In this document: one piece after another, positions 4,188 through 31,087 of the stretch
Position numbering within the stretch: the stretch's first letter is position 1
Layout: each line of letters starts with the position of its first letter
DNA from: Nitrospinota bacterium
GTDB taxonomy: Bacteria > UBA8248
NCBI GenBank assembly: GCA_046581755.1
Contig: JAYGFR010000393.1
Span: 1-32,967, forward strand
DNA length: 32,967 bases
Direction of reading: 5' to 3'
The notes under the pieces: generated by a model
What the model saw: only the letters and a program-made list of their open reading frames with translations
Told to the model about the DNA's origin: nothing
Database searches by the model: none
Made by a program: the position numbers and the translations under genes

Positions 4188-5606
4188 ATGCCCCGGACAA
4201 AAATCGTCTGCACACTGGGTCCAGCGAGCAACAAGGCATCCATCCTGCGATCCATGATTCGCGCCGGGATGAACGTGGCCCGCCTCAACTTCTCCCACGG
4301 CACCCAAGCCGAGCACAGGGCCACCATCCGGAAAATCCGGCGAATCGCATCCGAGGAAGACCGCCCCATCGCCGTCCTCGCCGACATGGGAGGGCCCAAA
4401 TTCCGCCTCGGAAAGGTGAAGACCGGAGAAACGCTCCGCGAAGGGCGGCGGGTGAGCTTGATGGGCCAGGCCCGCCTGGGCACATCGGATAGACTCTCCA
4501 CCAACCGGCCCACACTCCTCCCCCAGCTGGGCCTGGGGGACCGCGTCATGATCTGGGACGGCAAGGTCCAGCTCGAGGTCATCGAAACCGGGGAAGAGGA
4601 AGTCACCTGCCGGGTCGTCATCGGCGGGCCGCTCAAGGACGGCGCCGGGCTCAACATGCCGGACACCACCCTCGACATTCCGGCCCTGACGGATAAGGAC
4701 AAAAAAGACATCGCCTTCTGCGCCCGGCAAGGGGTGGACTTCATCGCCCTCTCCTTCGTGCGGACGGCGGCGGATATTGAGTTGTGCCGCCGCGAAATTC
4801 GCTCCAACAAAGTGGACATCCCCATCGTCGCGAAGATGGAGAAAACCGAGGCCATCCGGAATCTCGAGGAAATCATCGAGGCGACGGATGGGGTGATGGT
4901 CGCGCGCGGAGACTTGGGGATCGAGATTCCCCTCGAGGAGGTTCCGCGCGCCCAGAAGAGAATCATCGCCTGCGCCAACACGCTCGGGAAACCCGTCATC
5001 ACGGCCACCGAGATGCTCTTGTCCATGGTGGATGCGGCCCGTCCCACCAGGGCCGAGGCCGGCGACGTGGCCAATGCCATCCTCGATGGGTCCGACGCCG
5101 TCATGCTCAGCGAGGAAACATCGGTGGGCAAACATCCCTCCGAAGTCATCCGGATGATGGCCCGCATCGCCGAGGCGACCGAGAAAGGCGCCGCCGACTC
5201 GTTCAACGAGGCCAGGAGGCACCGGTCCGCGGACGGCGATTCCGATCTGGGCCATGCGATCGCCCGCTCCACCGTGGACCTTGCCCGCGACCTGAACGCC
5301 GCCGTGATCATCACCCCGACGGACTCGGGCGACACGCCCCGGCGGCTCGTTCTCCAGCGCCCCCCGCAGGCCGTGATCGCCCTGAGCACCTCGGATCGGA
5401 CCCTCCGGCGGCTTGCCCTTTCTTGGGGCGTCGTTCCATGGAAACTACCGCGCCGCCTGCCCCTCGAAAAGATTCTTCCTGCTATCCGGGATCGAATCCT
5501 CGACGAGCAACTGGGAGTCCAGGGCGATCATGTCATTTTCTGCGCGGGCTATCCCTTCGGAGCCAAAGAGAATTCGGGAAGGGTCATTCAAACCGAGGTG
5601 ATCTGA
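4188..5606 (+). CDS. pyk: Pyruvate kinase (GPK form, predicted K+-independent)
   Basis: RTKIVCTLGPAS, ARLNFSHG, DMGGPKFR, MVARGDLG, PTRAEAGDVANAILDGSDAVMLS. Confidence 0.97.
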   Translation: MPRTKIVCTLGPASNKASILRSMIRAGMNVARLNFSHGTQAEHRATIRKIRRIASEEDRPIAVLADMGGPKFRLGKVKTGETLREGRRVSLMGQARLGTSDRLSTNRPTLLPQLGLGDRVMIWDGKVQLEVIETGEEEVTCRVVIGGPLKDGAGLNMPDTTLDIPALTDKDKKDIAFCARQGVDFIALSFVRTAADIELCRREIRSNKVDIPIVAKMEKTEAIRNLEEIIEATDGVMVARGDLGIEIPLEEVPRAQKRIIACANTLGKPVITATEMLLSMVDAARPTRAEAGDVANAILDGSDAVMLSEETSVGKHPSEVIRMMARIAEATEKGAADSFNEARRHRSADGDSDLGHAIARSTVDLARDLNAAVIITPTDSGDTPRRLVLQRPPQAVIALSTSDRTLRRLALSWGVVPWKLPRRLPLEKILPAIRDRILDEQLGVQGDHVIFCAGYPFGAKENSGRVIQTEVI

Positions 5607-23571: not shown

Positions 23572-24431
23572 CCGGCTCCCTATCCGATGACCGGATTCCG
23601 CCGCGCTCCAATGCGTGGGACAAATGGGGTTGGCTCGCGGCCATGGGGGCGTTTCTCGCCTGGAGCTTCTCGGTCGCCGGGTGGGAGATCCTGGCGGTAT
23701 TCACCCGCGAGGGGGTCGCTCAGTTCGGAAGCTATCTGAAAAATTTCTGGCCGCCCGCCACGGACGCGGCGTTTTTGAGCGTCGTCGCCCAAGCCGTCCT
23801 CGAAACCCTCGCCATATCCATCGGGGGAACGGCCATCGCCTCCGTGATCGCCATGGGGCTCCTCTACTTCGCCTCCTCGGAAGACCTTATCGGAGGCGGA
23901 GGCGAGTGGGAGGCGGCCGCACCGCACCAAAAAACGCTTCGCCGCGCCCTTTTCATCGCCTCGCGGGCGGCCCTGAACCTGTTCCGGACCATCCCCGAGA
24001 TTGTCTGGGCGATTTTTTTCGTTTTCGCCGTGGGCCTGGGCACGTTCGCCGGAACGCTTGCGCTGGGAATCCACAACGCCGGGGTCATGGGAAAGCTTTA
24101 TGCGGAAACCCTCGAAAACACCCGCCGGGGAGCCGTGGAGGCGCTGCGCGCGGGCGGGGCCACGCGCTTCACGGCTTTCGCCTACGGGGCGGTTCCGCAG
24201 GCCTCCTCCCAACTCATCGTCTACACCCTCTACCGCTGGGAGGTGAACATCCGGGCGGCGGCGATTCTCGGCTTCGTCGGCGCGGGGGGAATCGGCCAGC
24301 AAATGTATATCTCGATATCGCTGTTTCTCGATTCGCGCCTGGCGACGCTGACCATCGCCACGTTCATCCTCGTGAACGGGGTCGATCTCCTGAGCGGCTA
24401 TCTCAGGCGAAGGCTCGATGCCCGGTTCTAG
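23568..24431 (+). CDS. PhnE/PtxC-like ABC permease (second copy)
   Basis: FWPP, RTIPEIVWA, GVMGKLYAE, LYRWEVNIRAAAILGFVGAGGIG; ATGA overlap at 23568-23571. Confidence 0.9.
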   Translation: MTGSLSDDRIPPRSNAWDKWGWLAAMGAFLAWSFSVAGWEILAVFTREGVAQFGSYLKNFWPPATDAAFLSVVAQAVLETLAISIGGTAIASVIAMGLLYFASSEDLIGGGGEWEAAAPHQKTLRRALFIASRAALNLFRTIPEIVWAIFFVFAVGLGTFAGTLALGIHNAGVMGKLYAETLENTRRGAVEALRAGGATRFTAFAYGAVPQASSQLIVYTLYRWEVNIRAAAILGFVGAGGIGQQMYISISLFLDSRLATLTIATFILVNGVDLLSGYLRRRLDARF

Positions 24432-24459
24432 CGGGCCTCAATCCCCTCCATCAAAAAAT

Positions 24460-24512
24460 AGCGCGGGCGAAACCCCCAGCGCGGGCGAAACCCCCGGTGC
24501 GGCTAAACCCTC
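24460..24512. repeat. 18-bp tandem repeat (two exact copies plus one degenerate)
   Basis: AGCGCGGGCGAAACCCCC at 24460-24477 and 24478-24495, then GGTGCGGCTAAACCCTC. Confidence 0.85.
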
Positions 24513-24527
24513 GGCGTGTGCCGTCCC

Positions 24528-25250
24528 TTACTCGAAATAGATCGCGACCGCCCGGACCGGAGAGCCCGTCCCGCCGCGCACCTTGAGCGGGAGGCAGGAG
24601 AAGACGAACTTCGTCCCGGCGATTTCCTTGAGGTTGCACATGTTCTCGACGTTCAGGACCTTCCGCTCGCGGCAGACCTTGTGGGCCCAGTAGCCCCTGT
24701 CCTTCATCGCAGCCGATGAATCGACGCTCGGCGAATCGATCCCGACGTTGACGCAGCCTCGATCGGCCAGCCAGTTCATGGCCTCCTCGCTGAGGCCCGG
24801 ATACTTGTAGAGCCAATCGTTAAAATCGCCCCCGCAGAATTTCTCGTAGTGGCCGGTCCAGATGAGAACGCTGCCCTTGTCCGGAACCTCGAGGTCCGCC
24901 TTCCGGCAGGCCTCCTCGATGTCCTGGGCGCTCATCCAGCCGTCGGTTCCGCAAAACTGGCTCAGGTCCAGGCAGATCGCATCGGTGAAAAACCACTCGA
25001 ACCCGAGTTCCTCGATGGCCTCGGCCCCGGGTTTCCCGTCCATGTGCACAAAAGCACCGACGTGGGTCGGGCCGTGGTCGCTCATCAGGAGAATTTAGAC
25101 GTGGAGGTGTGTCCCGCGAGGGCGAGTCCCGGTAGGCGTAGGCGGTTTCCTCGTGCGTTTTGGCGGGGTAGACGACGGTACGCTGATGGCCGGGTAGACG
25201 GGGATTCCGTTAAAAATATCCTGGGTCAGATCGATGATTCTCCATTTCAT
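24528..25250 (-). pseudogene. Cyclase / kynurenine formamidase family gene, disrupted
   Basis: True start MKWRIIDLTQDIFNGIPVYP at 25250 (AGGAGG RBS); at least two indels between about 25190 and 25095 and a TAA at 25097-25095; C-terminal part has HGPTH, GIDSPSVD, AHKVC, VENM and GGTGSPVRAVA. Confidence 0.8.
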
Positions 25251-25312
25251 GGTGACGCTCCTCCTTGGGTTGAGATTGAACGGAAAAAGCGGATGAAGTA
25301 GATCGGGGGTTC

Positions 25313-25369
25313 ATGAGCCGACGGCCGGAATGAGCCGGCGGCCGGGAAACTTCATGAGCCAGCGGCTGG
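25313..25369. repeat. Three copies of the 16-mer ATGAGCCRRCGGCYGG
   Basis: Copies at 25313-25328, 25330-25345 and 25354-25369. Confidence 0.8.
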
Positions 25370-25380
25370 CACTTCGGGAT

Positions 25381-26172
25381 TCAAGTTTTGGCGCTCTCCG
25401 GGGCATCTTCCGGCTCCCAGAGGCGTTTTTTTACGATGATCCACCCGAACGCCAGAATCAAGACAGCGCTCGCGACATAGGCCGCCCGGACCGGCCCGAG
25501 CCACAGGCTGTCCGCCCGGAAGCCGCTGACGGCGGCCCGGCCGATGGAGTAGAGGATGAAATAGAGGCAAAAGATGAACCCGGCCTTGTGGGGGCGAAGG
25601 CGCAGCCGGCGCAGGATAGCGAACCAGATGAGATTCAGGACCAGCTCGTAGAGCATGACTGGGTGAATTGGGGTATTGGGAAACTGGCGGCCGGCGATGC
25701 TGGCGGCCGGAAAGACGATGCCCCAGGAGGATGCGGTGGGAACCCCGTGGGCGTCGCCGTTCATGAAATTCCCGAACCGGCCGAACACCTGGCCCAGCAT
25801 GATCGAGGGGGCGGCCACGTCGGCGAAGGAGAATGTGGACACCGGATGGCGCCGCAGATACCAGACCCCCGCCAGCACACCCCCGACGAGGCCTCCGTGG
25901 ATGGCGAGGCCCCCGTGCCAGACCTGGGGTATCTCCCAGGGGTTCGCTCCGTAAAAATTCCAGTTGAAGATGACGTAGTAAATCCGCCCCCCCAGGATGC
26001 CCGAGAACATGGCGACCAACCCCAAATTCATGATCTCATCCGGGGTGATCGGAAGGCCCTTGCGCTCGGCCTCCTTGCCGGCCAGCCACACCCCGACGAG
26101 AACCGCCGTGACGTACATCATCCCGTACCAGCGGAGTACTAATGGACCGATTTCGACGATGACGGGACTCAA
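25381..26172 (-). CDS. lgt: Prolipoprotein diacylglyceryl transferase
   Basis: LRWYGMM, GGRIYYV, WHGGLAIHGGL, GRFGNFMNG, HPVMLYE; TTG start at 26172 after GAGGAG. Confidence 0.96.
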   Translation of the reverse strand: MSPVIVEIGPLVLRWYGMMYVTAVLVGVWLAGKEAERKGLPITPDEIMNLGLVAMFSGILGGRIYYVIFNWNFYGANPWEIPQVWHGGLAIHGGLVGGVLAGVWYLRRHPVSTFSFADVAAPSIMLGQVFGRFGNFMNGDAHGVPTASSWGIVFPAASIAGRQFPNTPIHPVMLYELVLNLIWFAILRRLRLRPHKAGFIFCLYFILYSIGRAAVSGFRADSLWLGPVRAAYVASAVLILAFGWIIVKKRLWEPEDAPESAKT

Positions 26173-26207
26173 CGGGCATCTCCTCGCTGGCGGTAAATAT
26201 TCGAGAG

Positions 26208-26243
26208 CATAAACAAAATGCCCCCTCATGCGAAGGGGCATTT
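26208..26243 (-). terminator. Intrinsic terminator after the DUF3179 gene
   Basis: Minus strand ATGCCCCTTC-GCAT-GAGGGGGCAT followed by TTTGTTT. Confidence 0.75.
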
Positions 26244-26304
26244 GGATCTCTTGGCAGAGTTCGGGATATGTCTTCGAAATATGGTGGGGATAACCGGCCC
26301 GCCG

Positions 26305-27413
26305 CTAGCGCTTGTGGCGATAGATCTCGCTTTTCGGATAATAATCCTTCCACCCGAACCAAAAGGATTGCGTGCTCGGAATCATCCGGAATTTTTTGCC
26401 CTTGAGCGGGCCTTCCGCGGCTGCGCCGGTCAGGAGGACCCACTGGGTTCCCGTCTCGCGGTCGCGCATGACAGGGCAACCGGCCGGGCCGATTTTCGAT
26501 CCCTTGCCCGGGTCGTTTTTGCTTCCGGGCTCGAAGGTCAACACCCGGCCATCGAGCTTGCGGTCGAAGACCACCCCCGATTTGGCCGACTCGCAATAAG
26601 AAACCAGCAGATCCCGGCCGGCGAAAACATCGGTCACAACCCCGGCCCGGTTCAGCTCCGCAAAGGGGTAGACCTTCGCCTTCTTCTTTCCGCCGCCCGA
26701 GGCGAGGGCGACCGCCACGATAAAGGTTTTGGGATGAAGGCGGGTGTCCCGGTATTTCTGGGGGATGATTCCCGCCCGGGAGCTATAGTAGTAGCCCTCG
26801 TAGGGGTCCCGGCTGGACCGAAAGAGGCGGCCGAAGAGGCCCGGTGGGGTTTTTCAGGATGAGGGTGCCGGGGAACAGGCGCTTCCATTGGGCATAGGTC
26901 ATCATGGCCGAGGGCAGCGACTTCAGGCGCTTCCCCTTCAGGGGGCCGATCAGCCCCTCGCCGAGCAGATGGCTCCAGAGCGTATCGGTCTGGCGATCGT
27001 ACATGACCAGAACGTTTTTCCAGAGTTTTCCCGACACCCCGATGGAGAGTTCCCTTCCCTCCAATATCCGGTCATACACGATGGCCGTATAGCAGAAGGG
27101 TCACCAGGTGACGGCAATTCCCCCCCCCCACATCGTTGACAATTTCGTGGGAACCCAGCAAGGGAACGGAATACGCCCGCCGCTCTCCGTTAATGTTCAC
27201 ACCGATGACCATCTCATCGGACGACATGAACCTATCGGCTTCCCGGACCGTGGCGAATTTCGGATCATCGATGGAGGGGATTCCGTCTTTCGGAAGAAGG
27301 GTTCGAATCTCATCGGCGGGGTTGGCCGATGCCGGCCCCACCACCGCAACGGCAAACGGGGCAAGTGCGGCAAAAAACAGCGCCACCCAAAATACGCCTG
27401 AAATCCGGGTCAT
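26305..27413 (-). CDS. DUF3179 domain exported protein, probable selenoprotein (UxxC); two frameshifts in this sequence
   Basis: Reassembled from three frames: signal peptide + LPKDGIPSIDDPKF...HEIVND | IAVTW-TGA-PFCYT...GVSGKLW..VLVMYDRQTDTLWS..GPLKG | DPYEGYY...KVYPF...RDRETGTQW...FWFGWKDYYP. TGA at 27103-27101; shifts at G10 (27120-27129) and A5C4 (about 26846-26854). Confidence 0.8.
27057..27100 (-). promoter_or_regulatory. Candidate bacterial SECIS hairpin
   Basis: Immediately 3' of the UGA: CCCUUCUGCUAUACGGCCAU-[CGUGU]-AUGACCGGAUAUUGGAGGG folds by eye into a long imperfect stem; the apical loop lies 20 nt after the UGA and has G at position 2. Confidence 0.55.
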
Positions 27414-27496
27414 CGGGGAAACTCCTCGCGGCACGGGCGGCGGATGCCGATTTCGGCCCGGGAGGGGAGAAATTCCTCTCCGGTATGGAAAACCCT

Positions 27497-28945
27497 TTAA
27501 CGGGGGCGAATATTCCTCAGCACTCTGAAAAAGGTCCTTTCCCCCCGGATCGAGCCGCGCGAGAGGCGCGCGAGAATGTTCGAGCCGGGCGGGATCTTTT
27601 GCAAAATGTTCTCGAAATCCTCCAGCCCCCCGAGAATCACCCGGACCGGCGCCGTCCGGTCCCCGGACGCGCGGTAGGTGAACTCGCGGATCACCATTCC
27701 CGCCCGAAGGCCGTCCCGAAAAGCGCGGCTGCCCGGTTTCACCTTGCGGATAAAAACCCCCCCGGGGGAGGTCAGCCTGTTCTTGGTCATGAGGCCGGGC
27801 GTCATGCTCTCGATTCTCATCCCGTAGGTTCCCTTTTCCGTGCGCTCCCTCTGAACGGGGGCCATGGGCCGCCTGCCAGAATTGGGCGCATCCTGGAGCT
27901 TGGCCAGCTTGACCGTCAGGAACCTGCGCTGGCCGTAGCGGACCACCTCCAGGCTGACCGCCTTTCCGGGCGGGGTCCATCCGACGAGCCGCTGCAAATG
28001 GGACGTGTCGGAGACTTTCTTGCCGTCGATCCCGACGATGACGTCTCCGGCCTCGACCCCTGCGTTCTTGGCGGGGCCATCCTTGAGCAGGGAGCCCACC
28101 AAGGCGCCCGAGGAGCCTCGAAGCCCCAAGAGGTGGGCTATGTCGTTATTCACGGGCTGAATCGTCACGCCCAGATACCCTCTCGGGAAACTTCCCTGGC
28201 GCCTGAGATAATGGACCACTTCGCGGGCCATGTTGACGGGAATGGCGAATCCGATGCCGCTGCCCGGAGCCGGGATGGCCGTATTAATCCCGATCACCTC
28301 CCCGTCGATGTTGACCAGGGGCCCGCCGCTGTTCCCCCGGTTGATGGCCGCGTCGGTCTGGATGAAATACTCGTAGCGGGCGATGCCCACGCCCGTCCGG
28401 CCCATGCCGCTCACCACGCCGACCGTGAATGTCCGCGTGATCCCGAACGGGTCCCCCACGGCGATGGACCATTGCCCCACCTTGACCATATCGCTGTCCC
28501 CCAGCCGGGCCACGGGAAGCGGCTTGCGGGAGGAAATCTTGATCACGGCCAGATCCGTGTAGGGGTCCGTTCCGATCACCTTGGCCCAATACTCCGAATC
28601 ATCCGAGAGGCGGACCCGCAGGCGGTGCGCATTCGCGACGACATGGTTATTCGTGAGGATGTATCCCCCCGCATCGATAATGAAGCCCGAGCCCGAGGAA
28701 AACCGGGGGATACCGGGATGGGGAGTAGGCTGTCTCTTATTTTTATCCTTCCTCTTGCTCCCCACGACCGGCCTCGGGGCCGCCTCGGCCCGGATGCTGA
28801 CCACGGTGGGCATGACCTTTTCGGCTATCTGGATGAAGCCCTGCTCCACTTCGCGAAGAACGGATATCCCCGTGCCGGCGCCATAGGCGCTTGCCACGAA
28901 AAATCCCACCAATACAGCCGAGATCGGCAGTGCCCGACGAATCAT
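27497..28945 (-). CDS. HtrA/DegP/DegQ family periplasmic serine protease with two PDZ domains
   Basis: GSGFII, LTNNHV, TDLAVIK, IQTDAAINRGNSGGPL, RGYLGVTIQ; signal peptide. Confidence 0.95.
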   Translation of the reverse strand: MIRRALPISAVLVGFFVASAYGAGTGISVLREVEQGFIQIAEKVMPTVVSIRAEAAPRPVVGSKRKDKNKRQPTPHPGIPRFSSGSGFIIDAGGYILTNNHVVANAHRLRVRLSDDSEYWAKVIGTDPYTDLAVIKISSRKPLPVARLGDSDMVKVGQWSIAVGDPFGITRTFTVGVVSGMGRTGVGIARYEYFIQTDAAINRGNSGGPLVNIDGEVIGINTAIPAPGSGIGFAIPVNMAREVVHYLRRQGSFPRGYLGVTIQPVNNDIAHLLGLRGSSGALVGSLLKDGPAKNAGVEAGDVIVGIDGKKVSDTSHLQRLVGWTPPGKAVSLEVVRYGQRRFLTVKLAKLQDAPNSGRRPMAPVQRERTEKGTYGMRIESMTPGLMTKNRLTSPGGVFIRKVKPGSRAFRDGLRAGMVIREFTYRASGDRTAPVRVILGGLEDFENILQKIPPGSNILARLSRGSIRGERTFFRVLRNIRPR

Positions 28946-29059
28946 GGGACCCTCTCTTTAATCATGTCTTCCGACAGGAAAGTGTATACGGGAAAACAAC
29001 CCCACCCCGAGTATACGCCCCCTTCCGCTCATTGAAAGAGAGGCAACCCACTTCGGCAC

Positions 29060-29089
29060 AAAAAAAGCCCCGCTTTCGCGGGACTTTTT
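29060..29089 (-). terminator. Intrinsic terminator after the anti-sigma gene
   Basis: Minus strand GTCCCGC-GAAA-GCGGGGC followed by T7; A-run on the other side. Confidence 0.85.
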
Positions 29090-29111
29090 GGTCGATCGAG
29101 GCATCGGCGCC

Positions 29112-29883
29112 CTAAAATTGGAAGGTCTTTTGGGTGAGGAGGTCCTTCATATGCGCCCGGCCATTTCCGTCTTCGAGGACCAGGGCATAGAACCAAATCC
29201 CCTTTCTCCAGAAGGCGAGCCGAAAGCCTTCTTTTTGGGCCTCGAAGATCTTGTGGCCGTTGACCCGGAAACTGGCGACCATCGGCAAGGAATAGCGAAT
29301 TCCGCTGGCCTCTCCGATAAAGAGGGCCAGGTTCTTGCCTTTGTGGCGGTACCGGACCATGGCCCCTTTATTCCCGGCGAACGGGCAAAGCCGCGCGCCC
29401 AGTAACGACCCTTTCAATTCGAGCGTATCGACATTTTGCTGAATTTTTCCGCCAGCCAGGTGGAAACTGCCCGGATGCTTTCCGACTTCACGTCGAGCGG
29501 ATTTCCGGTCTCCACCCGGTATATCATCATCGTGTCGGCCACCAGCGGTTCCGGCACCGCTACCGCCCTCTGATAGCCGCCCAGCCAAAAACCATGAACG
29601 TGATGACCGCGGCGGCGGCCACCTAGGGGCGGAACCACACAGACGGGCGAAGCCCCTCCCGGCGGAGCGCCCGCTTCACGCGCTGTTTCAGTAAGTCCGG
29701 AGCGACCGGCCCCTCCCCCTCCAGGCGGCCGGGCAACATCCCCTTGAGCGCCACGACACGCTCGTATTCCGCCCGGCAGGCCTCGTCTTTTTCGATCCAG
29801 CCCTGCAGCTCCAGGGTATCCTTTACATCCAGTTCGTTATCGACATAGGCGTCGATAAATCGAATCGCATCTTCCCGAATCAT
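29112..29883 (-). pseudogene. Membrane anti-sigma factor (RsiW/zf-HC2-like), disrupted
   Basis: MIREDAIRFIDAYVDNELD N-terminus; TAG at 29625-29623 before the TM segment VAAAAVITFMVF; shifts at about 29589 and 29452; C-terminal LLGARLC...MVRY...LALF...AFWRKGIWFYALV. Confidence 0.75.
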
Positions 29884-30059
29884 CTTTTCCTCAAATCGCG
29901 CTGCCCGGACCCCGCAACAGAGTCCGGTATTCCGGCGCGGCCACAAGCATCGGCGAAAAACGGTTCACCCCCGAACATTTCACCTCAAAACGCCTTCTCT
30001 ATCCTCCATCCGCTTGAACAACCGCATTCCGGAATAAATTCACTTTTCCGGCGGAGGCC

Positions 30060-30584
30060 CTAACTTTCCCTGGCTCTATCGTACTTTGTCAACAAAATTT
30101 GGAGCATCCTCCTGGCCCGGTACAGGCGGGACATGACGGTCCCCAGCGGACATTCTTCAATTTCGGATATTCCCTTATGCGAAAAACATTCAATATCGGA
30201 CAATACGACGATGCGCTTGAATTTTTCCGGAATTTCCGAAAGCGCCCTGTTGATCATCTCGGCGGTCTGGCGGTTAAATAATTCCACCTCCGGCCCATCG
30301 ATGGAAGAATGTCCCACGGGAAACGAATCGCCATCGGAGCGTTGATACTCCGAATCACCGAGATTCACCTGGATCGGACTCCGAGCGGCCTTTCTGAACC
30401 GGTTTGATATAGGTGTTTTTGAGGATTTTAAAGAGCCAGGCCCGGATATTCGTACCGGGCTGGAACTGTTGATAGAAGCGGATGCCCGCACATAAACGTC
30501 CTGAACCAGATCCTCGGCGTCCTCAGGACTGCCCGACATCCGTTGCGCCCCTCGGTAGAGGGCGTCGATATGCTCCAGGGCCAT
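30060..30584 (-). pseudogene. ECF sigma-70 factor with compensating frameshifts in region 2
   Basis: HIDALYR..DAEDLVQD and region 4 CPLGTVMSRLYRAR are in frame; the conserved segment RFYQQFQPGTNIRAWLFKILKNTYI sits in a shifted frame between about 30482 and 30404. The true start may lie slightly upstream. Confidence 0.8.
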
Positions 30585-30628
30585 ACTTTTAAACTCACAT
30601 CTATCTAGTTGTATATCAAATATATTTA

Positions 30629-31087
30629 CTACATTACCTCAAGTATCACTTCAATTTCAACGGGGGAGCCAAGCGGCAGCTCCGCAGCCCCGATCGCCAC
30701 CCGCGCATGCTTCCCAGCATCGCCGAATATCTCGACGGCCAGCTCGGAGGCCCCGTTCAAGACAAGGGCCTGGTCCGTAAATCCCTCCGAGGAGGCGACA
30801 TATCCGGTCATCCGGACGATTCGGGCCACCCTGTCCAGGCTCCCCAAGGCCGCCTTGGCCTGGGCAAGCGCATTCAGGAGGCACACCTGGGCGCACTCCT
30901 GGGCCGCATCGACCCCCACATCTTCCTTAACCTTCCCCTGGTGGAGCAAATTCCCGTCCCGGAAGGGAACTTGTCCGGATATGAATAAAAAACCCTGGGA
31001 TAATACATAGGGCACATATGCCCCCACTGGCGCCGGGGCGAGCGGAAGCTCGATTCCAAGCGCTTGAATCTTTTCCTCCACTCCCAT
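30629..31087 (-). CDS. RidA/YjgF family protein
   Basis: PVGAYVP, FISGQVP, NGASEL..IFG..GKHARVAIG..ELPLGSPVEIE. Confidence 0.92.
   Translation of the reverse strand: MGVEEKIQALGIELPLAPAPVGAYVPYVLSQGFLFISGQVPFRDGNLLHQGKVKEDVGVDAAQECAQVCLLNALAQAKAALGSLDRVARIVRMTGYVASSEGFTDQALVLNGASELAVEIFGDAGKHARVAIGAAELPLGSPVEIEVILEVM

Follow-up and report, generated by a model that had tools for sequence, protein, structure and literature searches.

Exported thiol-disulfide oxidoreductases such as DsbC/DsbG and TlpA/Etrx have the thioredoxin fold, and envelope-stress operons that combine an ECF sigma factor, an anti-sigma factor and HtrA are represented by rpoE-rseA-degP-type clusters. Exchange between cysteine and selenocysteine (Sec) is typical of catalytic redox cysteines, and NirD is a Rieske-like protein without cluster ligands. 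The DUF3179 family (PF11376; at least 8000 matches, with no solved relative in a PDB sequence search) is tabulated with the motif UxxC/T as a predicted selenoprotein family (PMC9312934) and appears in Table 1 of PMC13188914 under 'Predicted with high confidence'. Both tables trace it to a single earlier source, given in PMC13188914 as Zhang and Gladyshev 2007 (PMC1976440), and the family is named in passing in PMC9230427 and in a macroalgae preprint. The table passages on DUF3179 give no fold, location or function.

We analysed a window of 32,967 nucleotides, the whole of a contig from a Nitrospinota bacterium, in which the initial annotation had proposed a hidden exported selenoprotein of this family; its statement that Sec-containing members had been annotated agrees with the published tables. 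Like the tabulated selenoproteins, the gene matches the same Pfam model end to end, with a predicted Sec at the first Cys of CPLC and a SECIS-like element inside the gene. It differs from them in that this copy is frameshifted twice and that the orthologue group lying between htrA and lgt carries WUPLC along with an additional pair of cysteines in domain 2. Since the family is already on selenoprotein lists, the Sec call itself is routine, and it mends a gene which standard callers break up, with separate database entries of 105 and about 257 aa. Our addition is a testable hypothesis of two cluster-free Rieske-like domains with a U/CxxC hairpin, encoded in an envelope-stress operon. Taken as a whole, we consider it reasonably probable that the locus encodes a Sec-decoded, exported, Rieske-like redox protein of such an operon, in a copy that has been frameshifted twice here.

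The DUF3179 gene, its frameshifts and its neighbours

PF11376 spans three minus-strand fragments at profile positions 1-57, 59-155 and 158-291 of 292, with scores of 64.5, 114.7 and 80.6 bits (gathering cut-off 27); an NCBIfam search returned no model for the three fragments. The parts of the gene are as follows.

27413-26305, minus strand: DUF3179 gene overall, three pieces, each in a different frame
27131-27413, minus strand: frame 1, with the ATG start, a predicted signal peptide (about residues 1-30) and the start of domain 1 as far as HEIVND (PF11376 1-57, E 1.4e-17)
27120-27129, minus strand: frameshift 1, a G10 run 5 nt short relative to the rest of the species and the orthologues
26843-27118, minus strand: frame 2, remainder of domain 1, Rieske-like in structure models (PF11376 59-155, E 7.3e-33)
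27101-27103, minus strand: in-frame TGA where CPLC has its first Cys, a predicted Sec codon that would give U106 in the intact 370-aa form
27092-27094, minus strand: second Cys of the UxxC motif (C109), invariant in 83 N-domain sequences
27069-27087, minus strand: SECIS-like core hairpin with a 7-position stem, one C-A mismatch and a CGUGU loop at 27080-27076
26840-26842, minus strand: frameshift 2, one base extra
26305-26839, minus strand: frame 3, linker and predicted Rieske-like domain 2 (PF11376 158-291, E 1.8e-22)
26595-26593 and 26478-26476, minus strand: Cys pair in domain 2, co-occurring in orthologues

The initial annotation had joined the three fragments into one protein of about 370 aa. 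The intact form does have that length (105 + U + 7 + 257 = 370 aa), with PF11376 running through it end to end, but each piece lies in a frame of its own, so the gene is broken at more than the TGA. As assembled, this copy has two frameshifts and no single open frame, and it could not give the 370-aa protein even with Sec insertion. The translation bears out the reading of the middle frame, IAVTW-TGA-PFCYTAIVYDR followed by DUF3179 motifs; the F of PFC is a private variant, and the relatives have PLC. The proposed signal peptide also stands on hydropathy, since the N-terminus, which follows a GAGGAG site upstream of the start ATG, begins with MTR, is hydrophobic from about residue 4 to 26 and has ASA before NP; from it we predict export. 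A lipobox Cys is absent, with no Cys in the first 70 residues and none in the orthologue N-termini.

A copy that is frameshifted twice is either a pseudogene or an assembly error. Alignment with four orthologues showed that 5 nt are missing at the G10 run and that one base is extra near 26840. When four public runs from four studies (4 of the 24 listed) were compared over 26000-27700, all four lacked the extra base and read PLC, and both runs that span the G run carried five more bases there. Among database proteins, which may overlap the compared runs and are not all independent, 12 of 14 other C-terminal cluster proteins are in frame through frameshift 2 (the remaining two begin at or after it), and all five other N-terminal proteins end in frame in VVG(G)GRKIAVTW at the TGA. 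Both lesions are very probably private to this assembly.

The neighbouring genes on the same strand are as follows.

30060-30640 (upper coordinate approximate), minus strand: ECF sigma-70 factor gene, with a frameshift close to the 5' end in comparison with genome G004
29115-29883, minus strand: anti-sigma-like gene, broken by one stop and two frameshifts, one of the frameshifts being found in other assemblies too
27497-28945, minus strand: htrA/DegP-like protease gene, intact, directly upstream of DUF3179
25381-26241, minus strand: lgt, intact, directly downstream; its true start is probably near 26178
24528-25250 (upper coordinate approximate), minus strand: cyclase-family gene, broken near its 5' end

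The position of the gene behind htrA and ahead of lgt is thus as first described, and both flanking genes are intact. The order ECF sigma, anti-sigma, htrA, DUF3179, lgt is conserved, and lgt and htrA flank the DUF3179 orthologue in most family members; among 100 loci, an anti-sigma homologue was found in 6 and an htrA homologue in 19. The sigma, anti-sigma, htrA order upstream of DUF3179 is likewise that of rpoE-rseA-degP-type operons, whereas here the selenoprotein, lgt and the cyclase-family gene come next, the sigma and anti-sigma genes show decay in this species, and the operon is predicted from gene order. The suggestion that this position hints at envelope protein quality control gains from the export-like N-terminus and the sigma/anti-sigma/htrA synteny, but a direct enzyme-substrate tie to lgt is unlikely because the signal peptide has no lipobox Cys. 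A scan of 24300-30800 found no sigma-70 promoter-like site and is uninformative for ECF promoters. Six RNA runs contained 0.10-0.23 of the words.

A terminator-like 12-bp hairpin with a U-rich tail lies between DUF3179 and lgt (26216-26243, minus strand). It overlaps the first ATG of the longest lgt ORF, and the lgt start is probably further down.

The operon is decaying in this species. One frameshift of the anti-sigma gene is common to four other assemblies, and two more assemblies carry different ones; the gene is intact on a 99.3% identical contig (L158). For the cyclase-family protein, 11 of the 15 cluster members listed have a 185-aa form, and one has 240 aa. Anti-sigma forms of 107 and 245 aa represent several independent lesions across the assemblies of the species.

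With modest confidence, we regard the two frameshifts in DUF3179 as recent pseudogenisation, which is more likely than assembly error. All three DUF3179 genes of this genome are broken, as are the sigma, anti-sigma and cyclase genes, with htrA and lgt intact, and the background is about 7 lesions in 181 genes relative to G004 (stops upstream of the start excluded), three of them within this operon. That the gene is instead intact in the sequenced organism, the frameshifts and the PLC-to-PFC change being sequencing or assembly errors in a low-coverage patch, has somewhat less than an even chance. The differences private relative to all compared runs sit within 290 bp and at homopolymer edges, as would suit such errors; frameshift 1 requires at least two events within 10 nt, contigs from both X2 and X4 end at the G10 run, the main contigs of X1 and X4 are otherwise identical to the window across 1.7 kb, and both shifted products (98 aa for frameshift 2) are singletons seen on this contig alone. 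Homopolymer-edge indels are no proof of error, however, since four other assemblies also carry an anti-sigma frameshift of this genome that looks just as homopolymer-like. A first lesion count (5 in 164) contained shadow ORFs. The reciprocal comparison of 172 ORFs of this genome with G004 gave 7 multi-frame ORFs and 28 with stops, but was dominated by shadow ORFs and discarded.

Selection on the DUF3179 gene may be relaxed within the species, as judged from three kinds of difference. Outside the G run, the window and the main contig of run X8 have four single-base differences in the gene, all of which are non-synonymous; other assemblies have lesions of their own (a late frameshift in P0128 and a D-to-Y change in PKDGIP in P0141); and the orthologue of genome G003 (L031/L043) has TAA at Tyr245, which is either an independent loss or an error, together with changes of the conserved His84 and Trp128 relative to G001. 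Between species, dN/dS against five orthologues was 0.05-0.18, indicating purifying selection. The copy in the window is the wrong experimental template, and an intact allele is preferable.

Predicted fold and candidate function

An AlphaFold model of the G004 orthologue, with Cys in place of Sec, had a pLDDT of 91 (95 for domain 1 alone), and the protein contains an internal repeat (E about 1e-12). Domain 1 aligned with the Rieske ferredoxin 2qpz over 92 of 103 residues at an rmsd of 3.0 and a Z of 8.9, slightly above the typical best Z of 7-8; each structure ranked 1-45 was a Rieske-family chain or a complex that includes one, and the first match of a different fold had a Z of 4.0. Domain 2 likewise matched Rieske ferredoxins (Z 8.7, rmsd 2.7, 91 aligned). 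Foldseek agreed in its Rieske ranking (best E 0.03) and gave no match at E <=0.001 for either model, and the ESM Atlas gave a single unnamed match at 0.75. The sequences themselves did not point to the Rieske family: hhalign of domain 1 against 19 Rieske sequences gave a probability of 0.7% and no profile similarity, a PDB sequence search with a 104-sequence profile returned nothing (best E 0.98), and PF00355 (Rieske) had no match in the DUF3179 fragments of the window.

Each half of the DUF3179 model aligns over about 91-97 residues with Rieske ferredoxins (2qpz, 3gce, 3dqy, 1vm9) and with NirD (3c0d) at Z 8.5-8.9 and rmsd 2.6-3.6, but differs from Rieske proteins in having no CxH/CxxH ligands, only 8-14% identity and no profile similarity, and in being tandemly duplicated with an export signal. 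No CxH/CxxH cluster ligands are conserved, and in domain 1 the U/CxxC cysteines are the only invariant ones. On these models DUF3179 is likely to consist of two tandem Rieske-like domains without Fe-S ligands, a likeness that is structural only, as a shared fold shows no function. In the domain 1 model U ends a strand and the second Cys lies in the next turn; to judge from strand order, this hairpin would be away from the Rieske cluster-binding tip. The Cys pair of domain 2 is present in 9 of 10 aligned Sec orthologues and lost as a pair in G025; being kept and lost together, it suggests a structural disulfide, which would fit export. No Rieske-like assignment of DUF3179 was found in the literature searched, fold-classification databases being outside its scope.

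DsbC/DsbG and the CcdA-linked TlpA/Etrx resemble DUF3179 in being exported and in carrying a CxxC-type motif, and CcdA or thioredoxin neighbours occur in distant DUF3179 loci as they do with TlpA/Etrx systems. These proteins use the thioredoxin fold, which was absent from the matches listed for DUF3179; the DUF3179 model consists almost entirely of beta structure. In a set of 76 distant loci, a Trx, redoxin, DsbA, CcdA, OsmC or CMD neighbour was found at 11 and a neighbour of ECF sigma or zf-HC2 type at 5; these are raw counts with no background set, taken from the one nearest ORF per side where found, 3 of the 115 ORFs having been added by motif or cluster. The DsbD_TM match in this genome is weak (E 1e-6) and unlinked to the DUF3179 locus.

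We slightly favour a function as a selenol/thiol redox protein. In this scheme, SelB would insert Sec on binding the GU loop that follows the UGA by 20 nt, and the U106-x-x-C109 pair on the beta-hairpin of domain 1 would cycle between selenolate/thiol and selenenylsulfide. The exported protein might then reduce or reshuffle oxidised cysteines of envelope proteins, while a co-regulated HtrA would remove those beyond repair, and recharging could proceed via a CcdA/DsbD-thioredoxin relay. The redox step, the partners and the co-regulation of DUF3179 are all parts of the scheme that we infer.

The main rival of a redox function is metal binding, in which UxxC would be a site for binding or sensing Zn, Cu or Hg on the Rieske-like scaffold rather than a catalytic redox pair. 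We consider this unlikely, even though the motif lies on a beta-hairpin turn in zinc-knuckle-like fashion, the His-Glu of HEIVND is nearly invariant and the listed structural matches include no thioredoxin fold. The repeated exchange of Cys and Sec, with a hairpin dedicated to it, and the recurrence of thiol-redox neighbours in distant loci speak instead for redox chemistry, and the published family motif, UxxC/T, indicates that the second Cys is dispensable in some members. Going further, we propose only tentatively that DUF3179 arose by duplication of a Rieske domain, which gave up its iron-sulfur cluster and took on a new role as an exported, non-thioredoxin selenol/thiol oxidoreductase for the ECF-sigma/HtrA response. 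If so, DUF3179 would define a new structural class among selenoenzymes, one that this marine species is losing together with its regulators.

The UGA codon and the hairpin behind it

On comparative sequence evidence, the TGA is almost certainly a selenocysteine codon. Alignment with homologues places it on the first Cys of CPLC, and the genome (96.5% complete) carries selA, selB and selD over cut-off (E 4e-171, 6e-112 and 4e-100, respectively) as well as tRNA-SeC(tca), the selC gene; selD itself contains a TGA. All of selA, selB, selC and selD, whose absence would have spoken against Sec, are therefore present. Nor is the TGA private to this copy: TW-TGA-PLC was found in all 19 orthologous genes with a readable motif from 18 relative genomes (17 of the same family and one of the same order, G005 having two genes; G022, a fragment without the motif, was excluded). 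At the first-Cys position, 80 GTDB loci comprise 22 with TGA and 58 with Cys (44 TGC and 14 TGT), and the titles of TGA-bearing records include ones that name Nitrospinota, Chloroflexota and Acidobacteria.

The selA gene is present in 23 of 24 same-family genomes and PF11376 in 27 of the 41 genomes searched. The small genomes of genus g4 in the same family (G007, G013, G017 and G020) have selA in 4/4 and a detected DUF3179 in 0/4. In family f4, selA is likewise present, but the DUF3179 genes with the best scores have Cys.

The hairpin places its CGUGU loop exactly 20 nt past the TGA, as the initial annotation had stated. The published bSECIS constraints comprise a loop of 3-9 nt with G within the first two positions, an upper stem of 4-16 bp, a spacing of 16-37 nt and an MFE of -7.5 or lower (PMC13188914); the 5-nt loop, the spacing and the 6 pairs around one mismatch satisfy them, and the 47-nt stretch folds at -13.9 kcal/mol. 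This energy lies within the range of shuffled sequences (z of -0.5, -1.2 and +0.7 for three stretches of the window, not beyond chance), and support for the hairpin comes from conservation and covariation, not from folding energy. At codons +5 to +10 the residue is retained in 18-20 of 20 orthologues, none of which has a synonymous change there, whereas adjacent codons vary freely. Six or seven of the seven stem positions are paired in 35 of 37 TGA sequences but in none of the 60 with Cys, the 37 being an incomplete set from which a filter omitted TGTG-start stems (L087, L092, L093, L095 and L078). In the covariation alignment, in which row L087 was entered as gaps, 89.6% of cells are paired and two-sided changes occur at 4 of 7 pairs, but in only 8 cells; none of 500 shuffles, a control that ignores relatedness, reached as high a value, and slid controls gave 19-39%.

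It is highly improbable, and already refuted by conservation, that the TGA arose as a nonsense mutation during decay of the gene or encodes Trp throughout the genome. Decay does show in this copy and its operon, but 18 relative genomes share the TGA, as do records with Chloroflexota and Acidobacteria in their titles; in alignments its counterpart is Cys rather than Trp, and a covarying hairpin goes with it. In addition, lgt terminates in TGA and the sole UCA-anticodon tRNA found is tRNA-Sec. Just as little can be said for the G10 run as a programmed phase-variation switch or frameshift site, for although the tract lies inside an exported-protein gene and is 3 nt longer in assembly P0141, in orthologues and other assemblies the run is interrupted and codes for VVGGRK, the second, unrelated frameshift would block the protein anyway, and G or C runs of at least 10 occur 33 times in the genome.

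Further DUF3179 genes were seen in this and other genomes. A second, Sec-type paralogue with YUTLC lies at C256:12928-14340 (minus strand; L004/L053) in this genome and has a different hairpin after the TGA and a premature stop upstream, where the reading frame is open in G001 and G010. A third, Cys-type paralogue (YCSLC) lies at C323:8879-10036 (plus strand; L005/L054), with one segment of its N-terminal part frame-shifted. A long form of about 640 aa with STUERC (UxxC), at approximate coordinates L055:5946-7880 (plus strand) and L056:5528-7430 (minus strand), has no evident signal peptide and an extra C-terminal region, and adjoins sugar-type ABC transporter and Rid-like genes. A tandem DUF3179 pair occurs in G005 (L025/L052), and the Dehalococcoidia locus L094 contains two TGA-bearing DUF3179 motifs at 5175 and 5931, 756 nt apart. 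Elsewhere in this genome, a RimO-like radical SAM gene lies in three frames (C66:13284-14793, minus strand) and a lactate permease gene carries a premature stop (C68:1-1437, minus strand).
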